Positions 1-25,340 of a stretch of 64,000 nucleotides of DNA are shown in pieces. The translations under genes and the position numbers were made by a program. Source of the stretch: Acidimicrobiia bacterium. Lineage in GTDB: Bacteria; Actinomycetota; Acidimicrobiia; Spongiisociales; ZC4RG35. Below the pieces are notes generated by a model. The model saw only the letters and a program-made list of their open reading frames with translations, was not told the DNA's origin and ran no database searches. The stretch covers positions 3,913 to 67,912 of the forward strand of contig DATABS010000071.1 of the NCBI GenBank assembly GCA_036259475.1, written 5' to 3'. Each line of letters opens with the position of its first letter. Positions within the stretch are counted from its first letter, which is position 1.

Positions 1-397
1 TAACGTCACCCACGATCAGGTGGAAGCCATAGTCGATGGCGCAATTGCCGGCGGCTTTCTGTTGCCAGGCTTCGAACCCCTCCATCAAGCCCTGACCTTT
101 GGTCTGGACCGCGAAGTCAACGACTGTCGTGGTGCCGCCCCAGGCGGCCGCCCGGGTTCCCGTTTCGAAGGTGTCGGAGGCGAATGTGCCTCCGAACGGC
201 AACTCCATGTGGGTGTGGACGTCGAGTCCCCCGGGAATGACGTACTTGCCCGATGCGTCCACCGTGTCATCCGCCGCCCAGTCGTGGCTGCCCGGTGCGG
301 CCAACGCCACCACCTTCTCGTCTTCGATCAGGACGTCGGCGGCCACCTGGTCGGTGGCGGTGACGACCGTTCCGTTTTCGATGATGGTGCGTGCCAT
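1..397 (-). CDS. dihydropyrimidinase / D-hydantoinase (partial; 3' end lies outside the window)
   Basis: Minus-strand translation from the ATG at 397 gives MARTIIENGTVVTATDQVAADVLIEDEKVV...GKYVIPGGLDVHTHMELPFGGTFASDTFETGTRAAAWGGTTTVVDF...AIDYGFH, a typical cyclic-amidohydrolase N-terminus. An AGGAGG RBS sits about 9 nt upstream. It is absent from the ORF track because it runs off the window edge. Confidence 0.6.
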   Translation of the reverse strand, partial: MARTIIENGTVVTATDQVAADVLIEDEKVVALAAPGSHDWAADDTVDASGKYVIPGGLDVHTHMELPFGGTFASDTFETGTRAAAWGGTTTVVDFAVQTKGQGLMEGFEAWQQKAAGNCAIDYGFHLIVGDV

Positions 398-403
398 TGG
401 CTG

Positions 404-1696
404 TCAGCCTCCTGTCGCTTGCTTGAACGCCGAGTCGAGAATTCCGAGGCCCTCGGCAACCTCGTCGGCCGTGACGGTGAGCGGGGGGGCTATGCGGAGC
501 GTGTTGCCGTACAAGCCGCCTTTGCCGATGAGGAGGCGCCCGACCTTGGCCGCCTCCATCACCCTGGCCGCCAGGGCAGGGTCGGGCTCACCGTCATTAG
601 TTCCCAACTCTACGCCCACCATGAGCCCCTTGCCCCGGACGTCGATGATCTCCGAAGTCTCCCCCGCGATCGAGTCGAGGCCCTCCCGCAGCTGTCCGCC
701 CATCTTGAACGCATTGGACTGCAGGTCGTGCTCCAGGAGGTAGTTCAAATTGGCGAGCGCTCCCGCCGTCGAGAGGGGGTTGCCTCCGAAGGTGGAGATG
801 GAGTTGGCCGAGAGGCAGTCCATCACTTCGCCCCTTGCCACGACGCCGGCAATCGCCAGGCCGTTCCCCAGGCCCTTGGCGAAGGTGAGGATGTCGGGAG
901 TCATTCCGTGGGACTGGTAGCCCCAGAAATGCTCGCCGGTCCTGCCCCACCCCGTCTGCACCTCGTCGCTGATGAAGAGGATGTCGTGGCGGTCGAGGAC
1001 CTCCTTCATGGACCCGAAGAAGCCATCGGGAGGGGTGGCGAAGCCTCCGACGCCCTGGATAGGCTCGGCGATCATCGCGGCGACGTCCCCGGCGGTCGCC
1101 ACATCCATGAGATTCTCCAGGTCGGCAACGCAGGCGGCGGTGAACTCGTCGTCGGGCAGATGTCCGAACGGCGAACGCAGCTTGTAACCGGAATGGACGT
1201 ACGTGACGTCGAATGGAGAGAGGGATGTCGCCGACCAAGACCGTTGGCCGGTGATGGCTACGGTCGAATGCGATTTTCCGTGATAGCTGCCCCGCAGGGC
1301 GAGGATCTGATTGGAGCGCCGATACTGGGTGGCGAGCATCAGGGCGGCGTCGTTGGCTTCGGTACCGGAATTGGTGAAGAACACTTTGGCATCGGCGATG
1401 CCCGAAAGCTCGGCGATCTTCTCGGCCAGCTCTATCTGGGGCTCGATCAGGTACAACGTCGAGGTGTGAACCATCTTTTCGGCCTGGGCCCGGACCGCCG
1501 CCACGATCTCGGGCACGTTGTAGCCCGTCATGGTGGTGAGGATCCCTCCGAAGAAGTCGAGGTAGGTGACGCCTTCAGCGTCGGTGACGCGCCGTCCTTC
1601 CCCATCCACCAGTGAGATCGGATCCTCGTAGTACAGAGCCAGCCACGACGGCATCACCTGCCGATGTCGGGAGAGAAGCTCCGAATGAACGTTCAT
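404..1696 (-). CDS. class III (omega/beta-alanine-type) PLP-dependent aminotransferase
   Basis: The 434-aa ORF has the aspartate-aminotransferase-superfamily class III pattern (ISDEVQTGWGRTG, TFAKGLGNGL). The likely ATG start is at 1696 (MNVHSELL...); a GTG at 1708 is the alternative. Confidence 0.85.
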   Translation of the reverse strand: MNVHSELLSRHRQVMPSWLALYYEDPISLVDGEGRRVTDAEGVTYLDFFGGILTTMTGYNVPEIVAAVRAQAEKMVHTSTLYLIEPQIELAEKIAELSGIADAKVFFTNSGTEANDAALMLATQYRRSNQILALRGSYHGKSHSTVAITGQRSWSATSLSPFDVTYVHSGYKLRSPFGHLPDDEFTAACVADLENLMDVATAGDVAAMIAEPIQGVGGFATPPDGFFGSMKEVLDRHDILFISDEVQTGWGRTGEHFWGYQSHGMTPDILTFAKGLGNGLAIAGVVARGEVMDCLSANSISTFGGNPLSTAGALANLNYLLEHDLQSNAFKMGGQLREGLDSIAGETSEIIDVRGKGLMVGVELGTNDGEPDPALAARVMEAAKVGRLLIGKGGLYGNTLRIAPPLTVTADEVAEGLGILDSAFKQATGG

Positions 1697-1701
1697 CTTG
1701 T

Positions 1702-1862
1702 CCCCCACGAAGTGGGGGAAGGTTCCTGCGAGTGTTGCGCTAGCAACGCTCGGAGGTAGGGGGGAAACCTTGGCGAACCCGAGGACGAGGTGAAAGACGG
1801 GTTCGGCTCCCCCCTACCCCACTTCGTGGGGGCCCCTTCCCCCACTCCTACGTCGTGGGGGA
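1702..1862 (-). promoter_or_regulatory. cluster of three hairpins with identical 7-bp stems (CCCCCAC/GTGGGGG) in the amidase-aminotransferase spacer
   Basis: The three elements are cccccacGAAgtggggg (1702-1718), ccccacTTCgtggggg (about 1822-1840) and cccccacTCCTACGTCgtggggg (1838-1860). The first overlaps the GGGGGA Shine-Dalgarno and the start codon of the aminotransferase. Confidence 0.5.
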
Positions 1863-1874
1863 CAAAAATGCCAT

Positions 1875-2717
1875 TCACGGGGCCACCAAGGGCTGGTAGG
1901 CATCCGGGCGGCGATCGCGATAGAACGCCCATGTCTTGCGCACTTCATCGATCATGTCGAGGTCGAGGTCCCGAACCACGAGTTCCTCGTCGGTATCCGA
2001 CGCCGACTCTCCGACGACCTGGCCGCGGGGATCAACGAAGTAGGAGGATCCGTAGAAGTCGTTGTCGCCGTAGGGCTCCTTGCCGATCCGATTGATCGCC
2101 CCGATGAAGTACTCGTTGGCAACCGCCGAAGCCGGCTGTTCGAGGTTCCACAGGTACATCGACAAGCCTCGGCTGGTAGCCGAGGGGTTGAACACGATCT
2201 TCGCTCCGGCCAGGCCGAGCGCTCGCCAGCCTTCAGGGAAGTGGCGGTCGTAGCAGATGTACACGCCGATCCTGCCGACCTTGGTGTCGAAGATGGGGTA
2301 GCCGAGATTGCCGGGCCGGAAGTAGAACTTCTCCCAGAATCCGCTCACGTGGGGAATGTGGGTCTTGCGGTACTTGCCGAGGTACTGGCCGTCGGCATCG
2401 ATGACGGCGGCAGTGTTGTAGTAGAACCCCTCGTCGGCCTTCTCGAACATCGGGACGACCAGCACCATCTCGGTGTCCTTCGCCAGTTGGATCATCCTCT
2501 GCATCGTCGGCCCGTCGGGGATCGGTTCAGCCGAGTCGAAATGCTCGTTCTCCTGCACCTGGCAGAAGTAGGGCGTGTTGAAGATTTCCTGGAAGCACAT
2601 GACCCGGGCCCCGTCGGCGGCGGCCTGCTCGGCGTATTTGATGTGCTTGTCGACCATCGACTCGGAGTCGCCGGTCCATTCGGTCTGGAGAATGGCCGCT
2701 CTCACGATGTTGGACAT
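1875..2717 (-). CDS. carbon-nitrogen hydrolase (beta-ureidopropionase / N-carbamoyl-amino-acid amidohydrolase-like)
   Basis: MSNIVRAAILQTEW...MCFQEIFNTPYFC...VYICYDRHFPEGWR is nitrilase-superfamily signature content. The ATG at 2717 is preceded by a GGAGAGGAG RBS; the longer ORF start at 2825 is unlikely. Confidence 0.8.
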   Translation of the reverse strand: MSNIVRAAILQTEWTGDSESMVDKHIKYAEQAAADGARVMCFQEIFNTPYFCQVQENEHFDSAEPIPDGPTMQRMIQLAKDTEMVLVVPMFEKADEGFYYNTAAVIDADGQYLGKYRKTHIPHVSGFWEKFYFRPGNLGYPIFDTKVGRIGVYICYDRHFPEGWRALGLAGAKIVFNPSATSRGLSMYLWNLEQPASAVANEYFIGAINRIGKEPYGDNDFYGSSYFVDPRGQVVGESASDTDEELVVRDLDLDMIDEVRKTWAFYRDRRPDAYQPLVAP

Positions 2718-2737
2718 GTCGTCTCTCCTCTCCTGTG

Positions 2738-2765
2738 GGCGGGGGACGGAGTTCCGTCCCCCGCC
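2738..2765 (-). other. perfect 12-bp GC-rich stem-loop (GGCGGGGGACGG-agtt-CCGTCCCCCGCC) between the substrate-binding-protein stop and the amidase RBS
   Basis: Read directly from the sequence. No U-tract follows on the mRNA strand, so it is more likely an intra-operon processing/stability or attenuation element than an intrinsic terminator. Confidence 0.5.
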
Positions 2766-2778
2766 TTGGTCACAAGTT

Positions 2779-3951
2779 CTACTCCCCTCCTGGGTTGAGC
2801 TGAACTTCGATCCGCTCCCAGTCATTGCCGTGGACGTCCAGACCCTTCTCTTCGAGGGCGGCGACGGCGGACTCGGCGAGGTCGGACCGGTATACGTCTT
2901 CGCCGATCTCCACGCCTTGGAGATCAGGGATCTGTGTTGTGGCGATCTCCACGGTCTGGTTCCACAGCTCTTCGTTCATGACACCGATTCCGTTGCTGGC
3001 GGGCCAGATGAGCGCATTGATCTCGTTCATCATCCACGTCTGGTGGCTGAGGCCCAGGGTAGAGCCGGCGTCGAGCACAGACTGAACGCAGGAGTCGGGG
3101 TTGTCACGGCAATAGATCCACCCCTCGAAGCTCGCCTCCAGGAACCGCTCCGCAATGTCCTCGTTGTCGGCGATCCACTCGGCGTTGACCCACAGTGCGT
3201 CCTGCAGCATGGCCGTGCCCACCTCATTGAAGTCGATGACGCTGAGGTCCTCCGGTTGGTACAGCTCGCCCGTGTCGGGGTTCTCTGCCTCGAGGACCTG
3301 GGCGTACTCGTTGTAGGTCATGGCCTCGGCCGAGTCGATCTCCCGATTGAGCAATGCCGCCATCGTGAAGTCCTGTGCCACCAGTTCGACGTTCTGAACA
3401 TCGAACTTCTCGATCGCCGCCAGCAGCTCGTATTCGTTGCCGAATCCCCAGTTGCCGACGACCTTGCCTTCCCAGTCCTCGGGAGCTGTGATCCCGGAAT
3501 CGGCCCAGCTCACCATGAGGGTGCCCGATCGCTCGAACATCTGGGCGACGTTGATGATGTCGGCGCCGGCCTGGCGGGATACCAATGCCTTCGGCACCCA
3601 GGCGATTCCGAACTCGGCGCCTCCCGAGGCGAGGACCTGCTGAGGGACGATATCGACGCCGCCCTCGAGGATCTCCACGTTGAGGCACCGGTCGTCGTAG
3701 TAACCCCGGTCGATGGCGGCGTAGTAGCCGGCGAACTGAGCCTGGGCGAACCACTGCAATTGGAGGCGAACGTCGTCGGGTGTCTCACACGCCTCGGCCG
3801 ATCCGGTGTCGGTCGCGGCTGTGTCGGTGACGGTGTCATCGGTCGTCGTGTCTTCCGTGCCGGCTACGTCGGCGTCATCGCCGCAGGCGGCGAGGGCCAA
3901 CGCCAAAATCGCCACCAGGGCGATCAGTCGGCGGTACATGGATGTCATCAT
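2779..3951 (-). CDS. ABC transporter substrate-binding lipoprotein, NMT1/THI5-like (NitT/TauT family)
   Basis: There is a lipobox signal (LALALAACGDD) and an NMT1-like body. The start ATGATG at about 3951 follows an AGGAGGA RBS; the upstream part of the listed ORF is unlikely to be translated. Confidence 0.8.
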   Translation of the reverse strand: MMTSMYRRLIALVAILALALAACGDDADVAGTEDTTTDDTVTDTAATDTGSAEACETPDDVRLQLQWFAQAQFAGYYAAIDRGYYDDRCLNVEILEGGVDIVPQQVLASGGAEFGIAWVPKALVSRQAGADIINVAQMFERSGTLMVSWADSGITAPEDWEGKVVGNWGFGNEYELLAAIEKFDVQNVELVAQDFTMAALLNREIDSAEAMTYNEYAQVLEAENPDTGELYQPEDLSVIDFNEVGTAMLQDALWVNAEWIADNEDIAERFLEASFEGWIYCRDNPDSCVQSVLDAGSTLGLSHQTWMMNEINALIWPASNGIGVMNEELWNQTVEIATTQIPDLQGVEIGEDVYRSDLAESAVAALEEKGLDVHGNDWERIEVQLNPGGE

Positions 3952-3992
3952 TTCCTCCTGGGTTGTCGTTTTCCTCGGTAGTCCGTGTCGCG

Positions 3993-4760
3993 TCACTCCG
4001 CGGCTCGTATCGAGACGTGCCACGGCATGACGAGCCGTTCAGCGGCGAGAACTATCGAATACATGCTTATCCCGAGCACCGCGGAGACGAGGATCGCCGC
4101 CCATGCGTCGGGGAACTGGAAGAGCTGAGCCCGGTTGGTTATGTATTGGCCGAGGACGTCCTGGGGACCGCCGAAGTACTCGGCGATGATCGCCCCGATC
4201 AACGACAGCGGCACTGCCACCTTCATCGCCGAGAAGAAGTACGGCAAGGACGTCGGGATCCTCAGGCGGCGTAGAATTTCGTACGGTGAGGCGGCCATCG
4301 CCCGCATCAGCTCGAGACGGGCAGGGTCCGCCTCGACCAGCCCCCGGGTCGTATTCGCCATGACGGGAAAGAACACCATCAGTGCTACCACGGCCATTTT
4401 CGATACCGGGCTGGTGAGGCCGAAGAGCTGGTTGAAGATCGGGGCGGTCGCCACGATGGGCATTGCGTTCACCGCCGCCGCGAATGGCATGGCCCCGAGC
4501 CGAAGGGTCGTCCAGCGGGCTACCGCGGCCGCGACGAGTATTCCCAGAATCGTGCCCACCACCAGACCCCCCACGGCTTCGATGAGAGTGCGGAATCCGT
4601 AGCTCCAGATGTCGGCGAAGTTTGTGACGAATGAGGTCCAGATCGCCGACGGGGCGGGGAGGATGAACGCCTCGATGTCGAACAGCCGGACGAGGGCCTC
4701 CCACAGCGCCACGCCGCCAACGAACGCGAGCACCGGCGCGGTGAGCCGGCCGGCCCTCAC
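3993..4760 (-). CDS. ABC transporter permease (NitT/TauT family, SsuC/TauC-like)
   Basis: It is a hydrophobic 255-aa protein with the EAA-like motif region (AMAASPYEILRRLRIPTSLPYF) and a 4-nt overlap with the ATPase gene. Confidence 0.85.
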   Translation of the reverse strand: MRAGRLTAPVLAFVGGVALWEALVRLFDIEAFILPAPSAIWTSFVTNFADIWSYGFRTLIEAVGGLVVGTILGILVAAAVARWTTLRLGAMPFAAAVNAMPIVATAPIFNQLFGLTSPVSKMAVVALMVFFPVMANTTRGLVEADPARLELMRAMAASPYEILRRLRIPTSLPYFFSAMKVAVPLSLIGAIIAEYFGGPQDVLGQYITNRAQLFQFPDAWAAILVSAVLGISMYSIVLAAERLVMPWHVSIRAAE

Positions 4761-5533
4761 GAGAGCTTCTCTCCTTGACGGAGCGCCTCACGCACTTCTG
4801 TGAGAAGCTCGAAGAATCTGGGACTCTCTCGTATCTCGAATTGACGGGGTTGAGGCAGGTCGATGTCGATGCGGTGGGTGATGCGCCCGGGTCGCGACGA
4901 CATCACGATCGTCCTGGTGGACAAGAAGACGGCTTCGGGGATGGAATGGGTCACGAACACGACCGTTGTCCCCGTGTCTCTCCAGATCCGCATCAACTCC
5001 TGTTGCATCGACTCACGAGTCATCTCGTCGAGGGCCCCAAACGGCTCATCCATCAGCAGAAGCGGCGGACGCTGTCCAAGGGCACGGGCGATCGCCACCC
5101 GTTGCTGCATGCCGCCTGAGAGCTGCCACGGGTAGTGGTCGACGAAGTCACTCAGACCGACCATCGCCAGCAATTCTTCGGCTCTCGAGCGACGGCCGTG
5201 GGCGTCGACGTCCGCCAGTTCCAAGGGCAACTCGACGTTGCGCAGGACTGTCCGCCACTCCAGAAGGGTGGCGCTCTGGAAGGCGATGCCGTAGTCGCCG
5301 TCGAGGCGCGCCTGGTGAGGGTCCTTGCCGTTGACGATCAGCCGCCCGGCGCTGGGATGGAGCAGTTCGCCTATCAGCCGAAGCAGGGTCGACTTCCCGC
5401 AGCCGGACGGTCCGATGAGAGACACGAACTCGCCCGGTTCGATTTGGAGGTCGATATCGGAGAGGGCCTCGACCGTGCCGGAGCGCCCCGAGAACGTCTT
5501 GCTCAATTTCTGGGCATCGACGATGAAGTCCAT
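4757..5533 (-). CDS. ABC transporter ATP-binding protein (SsuB/TauB-like)
   Basis: Walker A GPSGCGKST, the ABC signature LSGGMQQRVAIARAL and Walker B LLLMDEPFGALD are all present. Confidence 0.92.
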   Translation of the reverse strand: MDFIVDAQKLSKTFSGRSGTVEALSDIDLQIEPGEFVSLIGPSGCGKSTLLRLIGELLHPSAGRLIVNGKDPHQARLDGDYGIAFQSATLLEWRTVLRNVELPLELADVDAHGRRSRAEELLAMVGLSDFVDHYPWQLSGGMQQRVAIARALGQRPPLLLMDEPFGALDEMTRESMQQELMRIWRDTGTTVVFVTHSIPEAVFLSTRTIVMSSRPGRITHRIDIDLPQPRQFEIRESPRFFELLTEVREALRQGEKLS

Positions 5534-6420
5534 CAGAGCTCGGCTCCTCGCACACCCGACGGAAGGGTGAGACGTTCGGCGAGCGATACCACTCCCACGA
5601 AGATCAGGCCGCCGATCGCTGCCATGAATACCGCGGCGTACAGCTTGGACGGGTCGGCGGCGAACACCTGGTTGAACTGGAGCAACGCCCGACCCAGTCC
5701 CTCACCGAAGCCTGCCGGTAGCTCGCCGACTATCGCCCCGACCACTGACGCCGCCGCCGAGATCTTCAATGCAGTGAAGATGTAGGGCAGGGCGGAAGGA
5801 ACCTGGAGCTTCCATAGGCGTTCCCAGGGGGAGGCGGCATAGGAGTGGAACAGTTCGGTGGCGGTGGGCTCGGGCGAACGGAGCCCCCGAACGGTGTTGA
5901 TCGCGACCGGAAAAAAGGTCAGATAGGCGGCGATGATGGATACCGCCATCCAGCCGGGAGCGTCCAGCCGTCGACCCCAGATGACGACCATCGGCGCGAT
6001 GGCGATGATGGGAATCGTCTGGGAGGCCACCACGTAGGGCATGAAGGCTCTTTCGGCCGTCCGGGAGCGGACGAACATCACACCGATGACGAATCCCACC
6101 AGACCTCCGACCAGGAACCCGACAACCGCCTCGCGCAGCGTGTAGAAGGTCGCCACGGCCAGCGCCACGATCAACGGCTCCCCGCCGCGTCGCACCGGTC
6201 CGAACAGGGAAGTGACGACGTCCCAGACATGGGGCATCGAGTTGTTCCCCGGCCGGGGCCGCATTTCAGTCTCGGTGAAAGGCCACACTCCCCCGGTCGC
6301 CCTTCCGAGGAGCTTGTAGCCCTCCCAGAGGACGATCACTGCCACCAGAATGGCGATGAAGGCGAGGACGCGGCGCTGCGGGCGTCGGTCGGCTTGCCGT
6401 GACTCAGTCCCCGCTGTCAT
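5533..6420 (-). CDS. second ABC transporter permease (NitT/TauT family)
   Basis: It has a polytopic membrane profile with an EAA-like region (ELFHSYAASPWERLWKLQVPSALPYIF). The start is probably the ATG at 6420 (MTAGTES...), because the longer ORF to 6663 would overlap priA by about 200 bp. Confidence 0.75.
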   Translation of the reverse strand: MTAGTESRQADRRPQRRVLAFIAILVAVIVLWEGYKLLGRATGGVWPFTETEMRPRPGNNSMPHVWDVVTSLFGPVRRGGEPLIVALAVATFYTLREAVVGFLVGGLVGFVIGVMFVRSRTAERAFMPYVVASQTIPIIAIAPMVVIWGRRLDAPGWMAVSIIAAYLTFFPVAINTVRGLRSPEPTATELFHSYAASPWERLWKLQVPSALPYIFTALKISAAASVVGAIVGELPAGFGEGLGRALLQFNQVFAADPSKLYAAVFMAAIGGLIFVGVVSLAERLTLPSGVRGAEL

Positions 6421-6466
6421 CGGCGGTCGACTATACGCTTTCGGGCGGGGCGTCGCCGCCAAATCA

Positions 6467-8167
6467 TCACAGGTCCAAGGGGTCGACGTCGACACGGACA
6501 GTTGCCCCCTGATCCCTCCAGCGCTGGACCAGAGGCCGCAGCGCCAGCTTGTATCCCCCGAGCGCGGCTCCCTGGACGAGCCAGCGATCGGCACCCTGGG
6601 TCGGTGCTGGTCCCATGATCGACATTCCGTCATCGCCGGTCGCACGCAAATCGCCGTCGACATTGGCAGAGCCGCCTCTCACCTCGATCACCATGATCTC
6701 CGATGCCGGGGGATAACCGAGGGCCCTTCTCTCGGCCATCTCGTGAGTGAGGAACTCCATGGGATCTCCCCGGCGAAGCGCGGTCACCAGGGGCTGATCA
6801 GGAAGAGACGTCTGGAGTATCAGCCGGTTTCCTCGACCCCTTCGCACACGTCCGGCGAGCCGTGCCAGAATGCGGAGGGCCTCTTCGCCCGCCCGAAAAT
6901 GGCTTCCCAGGGCCAGTCCGTCGACGTCGACCGCAATTGCCAGTTCGACCCCCGTAGTGGAGGCGAGATCCCGCTCTGAGCCGACGCCGACCGGAGCCTT
7001 CGAGTTCGTCTCGCCGACTCTGTCGCCGAACAGGCCCTTCAACTCGTGGAGTACCCGGCCGACTCCCGCCCCCAATGGCTCGAACGTGGCACCGCCGCAG
7101 TTGAGGCAGGGGCGGGAGGGTGCGCCGCAGCGGGTGCAGGCTTCGCCCGGTTCCGGCCGGGAACCGCAGTTGGCGCACCGGCGGAGTTCCTTGCATGTGG
7201 CGCACCGGTACGCCGGGGCGTAGCCCCGCCGGTGGCTGAAGACGAAGACTGTGCCGTCCCGCTCGAGCACCCGGGCGATCGCCGTCCGGGCGCGAGCCGA
7301 GACGAGGCCCGACCCGGGCGGCTCCTCGTTGCGGTCGACCACTTCGACCAGGGGCCAGGCTCGGGGACCGGGTCTTACGACCTCCGCTCCCGCTGCCAGT
7401 AATTCGAGGGAGGGCGTCGGACCGACGTACACCTGGGAGAAGCGCTCGAGCCGACCGCGTGTCATCATCAGCCGCCGAACGGCGAGCGTCGGCGTCTGTC
7501 GGTCTTTCATCGCCCGGCGGCTCTCTTCGACGACCACCGCCACCGCCAATCCGGCCACGGGCCAGGTGGCGACGCGAGGAGTGCCGATGACGATGTGCCC
7601 GGGCTGGGAGGCAGCCCTCGACCAGCGTTCGGTGGTCGTGGCGTCATCGACATCGCCAGATATCTCGATGACGTTCTCACCGACCAGACGGCGGGCGTGA
7701 CGGGCCACCATGTCAGCTTCCGAGGCGGTTGCCACCACTATCAGCAGCGACCGGGCGGTCCCGACGATGGGAGTGAGCGCCTCCAGCCACGACACGTCTT
7801 CCCAGGGTGACAGGAGGGCCGTGATGGGCCGTCGCCGCCCCTCCAGCACGGCCTCGGTCAGCTCATCGAGCGGATGCTTGGCAGGTGACGGATTCTGCCC
7901 TGTCGGCGTGTCGCGTCGACTGTGGTGAATTTCAGTCGGTTGGGTGGGGAGATTCGGCGGCGCCGCCCGCTCCAGCATCACCGACACCGGGGCCAGATAG
8001 TGATGGGCGGCCCAGACCAGGGCGTCCCGCAGCTGGGGCCCGAAGACGGGAAGATCGCCCGACACCCCGGTGATCGGCTTCAACCGCTCCGGTGGCCTCT
8101 CTCCCAGTTCGACCACATGTCCGCGTACGCGGCGCCCGCCGAGCGGAACCCGCACGATGCTTCCCAC
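6467..8167 (-). CDS. priA: primosomal protein N' (PriA) homolog with degenerate Walker A/B motifs
   Basis: The PriA-specific Cys-rich zinc-binding region (CATCKELRRCANCGSRPEPGEACTRCGAPSRPCLNCGG) and C-terminal domain are present. The helicase core aligns, but Walker A reads IVGTARSL with no GKT/GKS anywhere, and the DExH position reads VVEES. Confidence 0.8.
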   Translation of the reverse strand: MGSIVRVPLGGRRVRGHVVELGERPPERLKPITGVSGDLPVFGPQLRDALVWAAHHYLAPVSVMLERAAPPNLPTQPTEIHHSRRDTPTGQNPSPAKHPLDELTEAVLEGRRRPITALLSPWEDVSWLEALTPIVGTARSLLIVVATASEADMVARHARRLVGENVIEISGDVDDATTTERWSRAASQPGHIVIGTPRVATWPVAGLAVAVVVEESRRAMKDRQTPTLAVRRLMMTRGRLERFSQVYVGPTPSLELLAAGAEVVRPGPRAWPLVEVVDRNEEPPGSGLVSARARTAIARVLERDGTVFVFSHRRGYAPAYRCATCKELRRCANCGSRPEPGEACTRCGAPSRPCLNCGGATFEPLGAGVGRVLHELKGLFGDRVGETNSKAPVGVGSERDLASTTGVELAIAVDVDGLALGSHFRAGEEALRILARLAGRVRRGRGNRLILQTSLPDQPLVTALRRGDPMEFLTHEMAERRALGYPPASEIMVIEVRGGSANVDGDLRATGDDGMSIMGPAPTQGADRWLVQGAALGGYKLALRPLVQRWRDQGATVRVDVDPLDL

Positions 8168-25099: not shown

Positions 25100-25340
25100 C
25101 CGACCACCGGTTGTGGCGCCGCATTCGGCGGACCGCTCGAGCGGCGGCGGGGCGTGGAACCCAGGGTTCTAGTCCTGCCTGGCGGTGTCCCGGCCCACGG
25201 TTCGCTCGGCGGGCGGGGGTTGGCGGCGGTCCGTGGAACCCAGGGCTCTAGGCCCCGCATAACGGGGACTCCCGCCCACGATCCGCTCGGCGCGGCTGTG
25301 GCTGGCGCCGGAGCCTGGAACCCAGGGATCTAGGCACCGT
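25100..25340. repeat. three tandem ~80-bp degenerate repeats (MIRU-like), each ending in the core GTGGAACCCAGGGNTCTAG
   Basis: Core copies lie at 25154-25172, 25233-25251 and 25316-25334, with 79 and 83 bp periods. The preceding parts of each unit also align (cccacgNtNcgctcggcg...). The first core contains the perfect palindrome GAACCCAGGGTTC. The units generate three overlapping artefactual ORFs ending WNPG(F/L/I). Confidence 0.8.

Follow-up and report, generated by a model that had tools for sequence, protein, structure and literature searches.

Positions 1698-1865 of the stretch analysed here, 64,000 nt of a contig from an Acidimicrobiia bacterium (DATABS010000071.1; the whole stretch is called the window below), very probably hold a full-length copy of a dispersed family of nested-palindromic Acidimicrobiia repeats, which resembles the repetitive extragenic palindromes (REPs), the bacterial interspersed mosaic elements (BIMEs) and the REP doublets forming hairpins (REPINs). 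Repeats of these latter kinds are known from E. coli, Pseudomonas and Stenotrophomonas, where they are mobilised by the REP-associated tyrosine transposase (RAYT, also known as TnpA-REP). The Acidimicrobiia family is proposed to spread and to homogenise at the DNA level, and a trans-acting enzyme may recognise its hairpins in single-stranded DNA, as RAYT does for REPs. The copy in the window occupies the minus-strand spacer that separates the gene for a CN-hydrolase (amidase) from that for a class-III aminotransferase and, as modelled by RNA folding, the folded element probably hides the ribosome-binding site of the latter gene as a side effect. A first, sequence-only reading of this spacer had noticed three hairpins and proposed a translational attenuator, an RNA-binding-protein site or a processing site. 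A dedicated site of any of these kinds is not borne out, as modules of the family also lie between genes at dozens of places unrelated to this one, spread over at least 11 other Acidimicrobiia metagenome-assembled genomes (MAGs), and the structure of the junction is not conserved.

The distribution of the family was obtained from a scan of one genome per species with the pattern TTGTCCCCC-N(3-25)-GGGGGAAGGGG, which returned at least 117 stretches. Most of those listed belong to a few Acidimicrobiia MAGs, with many separate sites in each; among the matches listed, at least 24 exact ones fall in CAWGTX01, at least 19 in DATFFO01, at least 13 in CAVUUV01, at least 8 in CAVYYV01, at least 7 in JAWOJB01, at least 6 in JBHJOH01 and at least 5 in DATHVR01. 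The first three of these MAGs, with at least 13-24 matches in each, show the many dispersed extragenic copies per genome that are characteristic of REPs. The sequence-only reading had itself named frequent genome-wide occurrence, as a simple high-GC bias, as the finding that would overturn it; the motif is indeed frequent in the related genomes, and the cause is a repeat family and not GC bias. The sites are intergenic; among 53 of them, 31 lie between co-directional, 18 between convergent and only four between divergent genes. Relative to the co-directional genes, the repeat points in the same direction at 10 sites, in the opposite direction at 11 and in both at 10, and this mixed orientation argues against a strand-specific RNA role. 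The pattern was absent from a scan of 2.9 million viral contigs.

An arm of the repeat is built in a set order, beginning with a first hairpin (hp1), which consists of TTGTCCCCC, a variable inner stem, usually with a C-GNA-G triloop, and GGGGGAAGG, and continuing with a second hairpin (hp2) and the conserved GGTAGGGGG; a composite consists of two arms inverted around a variable centre. The common layout of the copies reads (a)gcTTTGTCCCCC-[hp1]-GGGGGAAGGGG-CCCCC-[hp2]-GGGGTAGGGGG(G), often followed by a small hairpin with a GAA loop and by GCRAACCCG, and copies are seen in either orientation, as single arms, as tandem arrays and as inverted doublets. Complete composites of 137-303 nt, ending in ...CCCCCTACCTCC...GCAGGGACCTTCCCCC-[hp1]-GGGGGACAA, were found at about 20 sites in seven other genomes in addition to window 1698-1865, and the window copy can be aligned over its whole length with eight of them. 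Their consensus fold is one long hairpin, the conserved pairs of which never vary. A locus in another genome (L115; loci carry numbers with the prefix L) reads TTGTCCCCCACGAAGTGGGGGAAGGGGCCCCCACGAAGTGGGGTAGGGGGG, which equals the arm of the window copy next to the CN-hydrolase gene (the 'L' arm) except for the hp1 insert, and in L002, a relative of the window's operon, the module cTTTGTCCCCC..GGGGGAAGGGGG is present also in the operon's next spacer.

The inserts of the two hairpins are diverse. In 70 copies, hp1 has 37 different inserts and hp2 has 47, which lengthen the stems by 2.0 (hp1) and 4.1 (hp2) nested pairs, compared with 0.5-0.6 for shuffled inserts. On the TTGTCCCCC strand, 26 of 56 hp1 centres read C-GNA-G, and the complement was found once. 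C-G-closed GNA triloops are unusually stable in DNA, and such strand-specific loops would be in keeping with recognition of the family in its single-stranded form. Variants are also specific to genomes, with TCGAGCTTGCGAGA occurring 16 times in CAWGTX01 and types of the form TGCC-N-GGCA dominating CAVUUV01, a pattern that suggests copying or homogenisation within genomes.

The element in the window and its gene boundaries comprise the following features.

1698-1865: full-length composite repeat of 168 nt, the plus strand reading TTGTCCCCC...GGGGGACAA, with inverted hairpin modules at both ends.
1875-1877, minus strand: TGA that ends the upstream CN-hydrolase (amidase) gene (ORF 1875-2825; Pfam CN_hydrolase), 9 nt before the element.
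1838-1862, minus strand: upstream hairpin, hp1 of the 'L' arm, with a perfect 8-bp stem UCCCCCAC/GUGGGGGA.
1817-1832, minus strand: middle hairpin, hp2 of the 'L' arm, CCCCAC-GAA-GUGGGG, with 6 pairs and a mismatch at the seventh position, then the conserved UAGGGGGG.
1808-1818, minus strand: GTAG-containing G-run GGUAGGGGGGA of the 'L' arm, pairing with its inverted copy at 1755-1765 (an 11-nt perfect inverted repeat).
1774-1805, minus strand: central hairpin, an inverted repeat CGAACCCG/CGGGUUCG with a 16-nt loop, holding the family motif GCCGAACCCGUC.
1755-1765, minus strand: inverted partner of the GTAG block, UCCCCCCUACC, where the 'R' arm begins (consensus of the family CCCCCTACCTCC).
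1729-1752, minus strand: inner hairpin of the 'R' arm (CGAG-x-GUUGC ... GCAAC-x-CUCG), seen in sequence, fold and alignment.
1701-1719, minus strand: downstream hairpin, the inverted terminal hp1, UCCCCCAC-UUC-GUGGGGGA, with a perfect 8-bp stem.
1694-1696, minus strand: ATG start codon of the class-III aminotransferase gene (Pfam Aminotran_3), 4 nt downstream of the terminal hairpin.

The three stems noticed earlier are the two terminal hp1 modules and hp2, all in the most widely shared stem variant, and the stem recurs within the spacer because it is the commonest variant of the family, not by local design. CCCCC-ACGAAGT-GGGGG, the form taken by the downstream hairpin, is the hp1 variant present in the largest number of genomes (7 of 12), and the hp2 insert of the window, CACGAAGTG, is the commonest hp2 variant. 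The stems had been described as identical, which is true of the two CCCCCAC/GTGGGGG stems at the ends but not of the middle one, where CCCCAC pairs with GTGGGG. Similarly, one of the three different loops, the 9 nt GACGUAGGA in the upstream hairpin, is one of the family's own variants, namely a mini-hairpin C-GUA-G (C-GTA-G in the DNA) flanked by GA/GA, and the insert ACGACGTAGGAGT is 1 nt from the variant ACGACGAAGGAGT of MAG JBKHJQ01. Further along the element, GGGGTAGGGGG is common to L001, L002, L003, L005 and most family copies, GAACCCG recurs after the GTAG block in L005, L023, L102 and L123, and the inner hairpin of the 'R' arm matches the family block CTCCGCT-GCGCTCCGGTGGCAGGGAC in position and differs from it in sequence.

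The hairpins are real and not due to chance. Exact CCCCCAC-N(3-12)-GTGGGGG occurs twice in the 64-kb window (1702-1718 and 1839-1861), compared with 0.02 occurrences in shuffled sequence; taken alone, the heptamer CCCCCAC is about as frequent in the window as expected (20 against 20.6), with five of the 20 in the spacer. The minus-strand RNA of 201 nt folds at -115.8 kcal/mol, compared with -79.0 +/- 4.6 kcal/mol for shuffles (z = -8.05), in agreement with the earlier view of a strongly structured intra-operon element. Its minimum-energy fold is one long hairpin, with the left end paired with the right end, rather than three separate hairpins, the pairing partners being UUGUCCCCCAC...GUGGGGGAAGG close to the stop codon and CCUUCCCCCAC...GUGGGGGACAA beside the AUG. 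It had also been rightly noted that no U-tract follows and that the structure is not a canonical terminator: the stems run into AAGG, UAGG or CAAG, and no terminator-like site overlaps the spacer in a scan of 1-7000. The Rfam 15 scan of the whole window at gathering thresholds gave no match, and that of 1400-2200 gave only hits of E 0.56-9.9 (five microRNA precursors, a long non-coding RNA region and a truncated RNase P model), far below gathering.

The gene boundaries are supported by conservation. The C-terminus RRPDAYQPLVAP of the CN-hydrolase is kept in orthologues, and the N-terminus of the aminotransferase, MNVHSELL, aligns with MSVHHELL, MTVHAELL and MTTHGELL of orthologues. Since the orthologues support the ATG at 1696-1694 over an in-frame GTG at 1708, the ATG was taken as the start, and the spacer measures 178 nt (from the stop codon at 1877-1875 to the ATG) instead of the 166 bp given earlier, a length that presumes the GTG. 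The only Shine-Dalgarno-like sequence before the ATG is GGGGGA (1706-1701), which lies in the 3' arm of the terminal hp1. The earlier placement of this sequence within the hairpin arm is thus upheld; the AUG, which had been placed there too, lies 4 nt past the local stem and is only partly paired, and this solely in the long-range fold.

Comparison with related operons points to a recent origin of the structured spacer. Relatives of the junction were collected through homologues of the two flanking proteins, and these homologues carry the name Acidimicrobiia. In the closer relatives, listed here with protein identity and spacer length, the junction has the following content.

L002/L003, 91% identity, 118 nt: GTCCCCC..GGGGGGA, CCCCCCGC-gaa-GCGGGG-TAGGGGG and a CGGGCC-gaa-GGCCCG hairpin.
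L004, 90% identity, 100 nt: a hairpin made of GGTAGGT repeats.
L006/L124, 88% identity, 82 nt: (GTCGGAA)n heptamers.
L126, 88% identity, 40 nt: mostly unrelated sequence, ending in GGAGGTCGGAAGTC.
L005, 87% identity, 166 nt: the first module directly duplicated.
L125, 87% identity, 12 nt: ATCGGAAGACTG.

Window 1802-1874 can be aligned with L002/L003, whereas 1698-1801, the half that holds the hairpin over the ribosome-binding site, cannot, and in L002/L003 nothing covers the ribosome-binding site. Their hp2 reads CCCCGC-GAA-GCGGGG, with a pair changed on both sides. The 1698-1801 half is specific to the window's species, and L001, from the same species in another sample, is identical over the part covered. 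A more distant set was formed by 31 orthologues from metagenomes, all with the CN-hydrolase C-terminus at the end of the upstream ORF; the median spacer among them is 8 nt, 24 of the spacers do not exceed 12 nt, and in several other distant orthologues the two genes overlap. As the junction is short in distant orthologues and in closer ones holds other repeats or the 'L' arm only, the long structured spacer is a derived, lineage-specific state. The ancestral junction would thus have measured only a few nucleotides, and the element, or its second arm, would have entered it in the lineage of the window.

The likeness of the family to REPs, BIMEs and REPINs extends to several properties. Like them, it is formed of short GC-rich imperfect palindromes with a conserved GTAG (PMC3686654, PMC6006769, PMC3116915), which stand singly, in clusters or as inverted doublets that fold as one long hairpin. 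It is intergenic, mostly at the 3' ends of genes and inside operons, and shows no target duplication; its variants differ among genomes and it is a target of insertion sequences (ISs), and such repeats can influence how stable the mRNA of adjacent genes is and how well it is translated (PMC3686654, PMC6006769, PMC3116915). The stems of hp1 and hp2 are GC-rich and of 6-8 bp or longer, as is expected of stable short palindromes, and inverted doublets with paired ends are represented by about 20 composites as well as by the window copy. On the other hand, an arm here has two or three hairpins in place of one, and the loops are mostly C-GNA-G triloops.

Several findings weigh against this assignment. 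In the operational definition, GT[AG]G stands 0-2 nt 5' of a fully paired stem of 7-20 bp (PMC6006769; also PMC3686654), whereas the GTAG of this family lies 3' of hp2, 4-6 nt before a third hairpin of 6 bp. That third hairpin is missing from the window copy, and in composites only, GTAGGGGGG pairs directly with the distant CCCCCCTAC. For 91 ORFs within 1.5 kb of copies, a small sample drawn from 8-kb stretches around some of the copies, the families with at least two matching ORFs included neither Y1_Tnp/RAYT nor any other recurring transposase, and no RAYT gene stands next to any sampled copy. The exact matches recovered, up to a couple of dozen per genome and as such lower bounds, are fewer than the classical REPs, of which there are hundreds per genome (PMC3686654). 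BLAST of the element against the 64-kb window, all that is known of the source genome, returned no second copy. In addition, the conserved pairs of the composites are invariant, so that covariation does not speak for a selected RNA structure, and the RNA effects at this locus are thermodynamic predictions throughout. In the strict sense, the family falls outside the REPs and REPINs by the position of its GTAG, and no RAYT gene was found in the sampled neighbourhoods.

The family is apparently undescribed in the literature and in Rfam. The literature on REP, REPIN or miniature inverted-repeat transposable elements (MITEs) in Acidimicrobiia or Actinobacteria, and on the motif itself, yielded nothing relevant, and a survey of GTAG and CGTC repeats in 2013 listed eight phyla, the Actinobacteria not among them (PMC3733652). 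We tentatively raise the possibility, itself rather doubtful, of an undescribed REPIN-like system of the Actinomycetota (Acidimicrobiia), with multi-hairpin GTAG arms, C-GNA-G triloops, a dedicated single-stranded-DNA enzyme, an association with arrays of tandem heptamers and, at this locus, the rewiring of an operon.

In the polycistronic mRNA, the element is predicted to fold into a hairpin of about -116 kcal/mol. It would part two normally near-contiguous genes by 178 nt, so that their tight coupling would be lost, and it would replace the native ribosome-binding site with its own terminal GGGGGA, which the fold would bury. Burial of the Shine-Dalgarno sequence, as the sequence-only reading had proposed, agrees with the thermodynamic prediction, in which forcing the region from -18 to +12 of the aminotransferase start open costs 31.4 kcal/mol; the same region costs 20.7, 11.6, 20.6 and 8.0 kcal/mol in four orthologues, and the CN-hydrolase start of the same operon costs 7.9 kcal/mol. 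The 5' arm of the long-range helix begins 9 nt after the stop codon and could be opened transiently by a terminating ribosome, but even then the Shine-Dalgarno sequence would stay covered by the local hairpin of 8 bp. Translation of the aminotransferase would hence be expected, on this model, to be reduced and uncoupled, and a regulatory side effect at this locus is plausible in the light of these energies. A known intra-operon stabiliser hairpin is the REP between malE and malF of E. coli. Hairpins of that type and those that sequester a ribosome-binding site share with the present one a stable structure in a polycistronic mRNA, a Shine-Dalgarno sequence in a stem and a potential for unequal expression of upstream and downstream genes, while the present one differs in being a recent gain from a repeat element, with no sign of selection or of response to a signal. 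REPs in E. coli operons shield the transcript upstream of them from 3' exonucleases (for reviews see PMC3686654 and PMC6006769), and by analogy the hairpin is probably also a barrier to 3'-to-5' mRNA decay that protects the upstream message.

Other explanations of the spacer have to be weighed against descent from a dispersed repeat. The structure could be a dedicated cis-regulatory RNA, selected to uncouple the transporter and amidase genes from the aminotransferase and the genes downstream of it, for which its intra-operon position would be suitable. Such a role would agree with the very stable fold (z = -8), with a Shine-Dalgarno sequence held in a stem that takes 31.4 kcal/mol to open, and with the hairpins of the 'L' arm at the same junction in L002/L003/L005, where changes fall on both sides of pairs. 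However, the distribution of the modules over dozens of unrelated intergenic sites in both orientations largely refutes it; the arm over the ribosome-binding site is absent in the nearest relatives L002/L003, the equally close L004 and L006 carry unrelated sequences at the junction, the junction has a median of only 8 nt in the 31 more distant orthologues, and no Rfam family matches, all of which renders a dedicated regulator highly improbable. Equally improbable is the origin of the copies as host-selected hairpins that arose independently at gene ends, as terminators lacking a U-tract or as mRNA stabilisers. Most of the copies do follow the 3' end of a gene, few separate divergent genes, hairpins form in either orientation, and downstream of the binding-protein gene of the same operon there is a simple conserved hairpin of comparable type (2738-2765). 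Yet the copies keep sequence that a hairpin could dispense with across loci and genomes, namely TTTGT, GAAGGGG, GGTAGGGGG, GAACCCG, CCCCCTACCTCC and the order of the modules, which argues for common descent by copying and not for convergence.

If the copies descend from one another, they might still be a conventional MITE, i.e. a non-autonomous DNA transposon with terminal inverted repeats that is served by a DDE transposase elsewhere in the genome. One end is indeed (AGCT)TTGTCCCCC-hairpin-GGGGGAAGG and the other its reverse complement, giving terminal inverted repeats (AGCT)TTGTCCCCC... / ...GGGGGACAA(AGCT), and the size of 137-303 nt, the many copies and the occupation of the orthologous site in some relatives, with the site empty in others, would all suit a MITE. 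This is nonetheless unlikely, as the flanks of about 20 composites show neither a target-site duplication nor a shared direct repeat, the recurring palindromic AGCT being an extension of the inverted repeat and not a duplicated target, and single arms and head-to-tail hp1 arrays (with periods of 37-42 nt) are common, which fixed-unit cut-and-paste does not make. Nor do the nearby transposases belong to the family: in L093 an IS with its own ends is inserted into the repeat, and L044 has only an integrase-domain fragment. Eight ORFs between nearby copies gave only housekeeping genes, the integrase-domain fragment and the transposase of that inserted IS, and no parent autonomous element with matching ends was seen in the loci examined. 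The comparison extends to ERIC (enterobacterial repetitive intergenic consensus)/IRU (intergenic repeat unit) of enterobacteria, the Correia element of Neisseria and RUP (repeat unit of pneumococcus)/BOX of the pneumococcus, which are likewise non-coding units of 130-300 nt with inverted ends. Like MITEs and the present family, they are co-transcribed with flanking genes, can form a long RNA hairpin and are patchy at orthologous sites. They differ from the present family, in which there is no target-site duplication, no matching autonomous IS in the loci examined, no sequence similarity to them and no Rfam hit, and which is modular, its arms and hp1 arrays occurring alone. A palindrome-associated transposable element (PATE) of the IS200/IS605 type was rejected, the ends being inverted and not direct copies on one strand. 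A switch between hairpins and a G-quadruplex formed by the four G-runs of the 'L' arm (GGGGGAAGGGG...GGGGTAGGGGGG) is a speculation of low probability, the two hairpins being roughly estimated as more stable than a four-layer quadruplex. A dispersed repeat family of REP-like character hence remains the reading that we prefer.

The case illustrates that a striking, riboswitch-like structure within an operon of a high-GC MAG may turn out to be one copy of a dispersed repeat, so that a genome-wide check is warranted before it is called a regulator. With this family, the known range of GTAG-tagged palindromic repeats gains a phylum missing from the 2013 survey (PMC3733652), and the family's architecture, multi-hairpin and with GNA triloops, is unusual. 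The case also offers a natural experiment, in which the same junction in close relatives has 0-12 nt, one arm or a full element, and at which the cost or benefit of an insertion for operon expression is measurable. On the tentative REPIN-like reading, the insertion of a selfish repeat would have placed a formerly close-set pair of genes under the control of a hairpin of about 30 kcal/mol, a natural example of rewired operon stoichiometry.

A few further observations concern the repeats themselves. Head-to-tail arrays of hp1 alone, of three to at least six copies with a period of 37-42 nt, are found at L011:5511-5628, L020:6606-6817, L044:4542-4643 and L093:4680-4900, and imply that this module can amplify on its own. 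The IS in L093 (2840-4497; MAG CAWGTX01, contig_8810) encodes a DDE_Tnp_1_4 transposase, sits precisely within an hp1 loop, has 17-bp inverted ends CCTGGATCCACCGATCG / CGATCGGTGGATCCAGG and is flanked by a 5-bp duplication CGCAG, which suggests that the family's hairpins can serve as IS targets, in parallel to the IS elements that target REPs. Tandem arrays of heptamers adjoin the 5' end of repeat modules and also occur in the orthologous junction; their units are GTCGGAA, GAGCTAC, CACGTCT, CGCAACA, GAGCAAC, GGTGAGT and GGTAGGT, and they are located at L006:9918-10000, L124, L002:12716-12765, L011:5430-5510, L020:6530-6605, L026:2960-3005, L065, L081, L096, L116 and L004:9895-9985. A period-7 array lies within 80 nt upstream of 9 of 90 hp1 ends, compared with 18 of 5000 random 80-mers from the same loci, and these arrays recall the heptamer STRR (short tandemly repeated repetitive) sequences of cyanobacteria. 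A separate high-copy palindromic repeat, CTGATACCCCCCC-TTGTCCCCCCCTTCGCAAGGGGGGGAAGGGG-GGGTATCAG, was found in the Planctomycetia MAG JBGPMX01 (L012, L027, L029, L040, L041, L052, L053, L068, L069, L074, L084, L087, L094, L099, L101, L107, L112 and L117), which has the core TTGTCCCCC...GGGGGAAGGGG in common with the Acidimicrobiia family and different flanks, a resemblance that may reflect common ancestry, convergence or an error of binning.

Others concern the operon and the rest of the window. Judging by domain matches, the operon of the window encodes ABC-transporter permeases and an ATPase, an NMT1-type binding protein, the CN-hydrolase and the aminotransferase, and orthologous operons extend to a dihydropyrimidinase-like amidohydrolase and an aldehyde dehydrogenase. 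From domain names only, the gene content of window 1-6663 and of L002-L006 suggests an operon for reductive pyrimidine / beta-alanine catabolism, in which L006 has a xanthine/uracil permease in place of the ABC transporter. A perfect 12-bp hairpin, GGCGGGGGACGG-aact-CCGTCCCCCGCC, is located at 2738-2765 in the minus-strand mRNA, directly after the gene for the NMT1 binding protein and before the CN-hydrolase gene; its position is kept in orthologues with other sequences (CGGGGACCGGGG..CCCCGGTCCCCG in L002, CGGGGACCGGGGAG..CTCCCCGGTCCCCG in L004 and GGGTCGGGGCGG..CCGCCCCGACCC in L005), and the hairpin, which does not belong to the repeat family, seems to be a conserved stabiliser or attenuator within the operon. 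At 25143-25339, where no Rfam family matched, the window has a tandem repeat of about 82 nt in 2.5 copies with 78% match, which holds GGAACCCAGGGNTCTAGG in every copy and appears to be placed between two minus-strand genes. Outside the window, upstream of the aldehyde dehydrogenase gene (L002:12990-13242 and L005:12750-12940), a conserved motif occurs twice in tandem before the start codon, as GCGGTGGGGGTGTGGGGGAGTACCCCCACAAATCATCAGGGAG in L002, where it sits within two repeats of about 180 nt, and as GCGGTGGGGGGTCTGGGGGGCAGTATCCCCCAGACAATCAACCCAGAGAGGA in L005, and it may represent a cis-regulatory leader.

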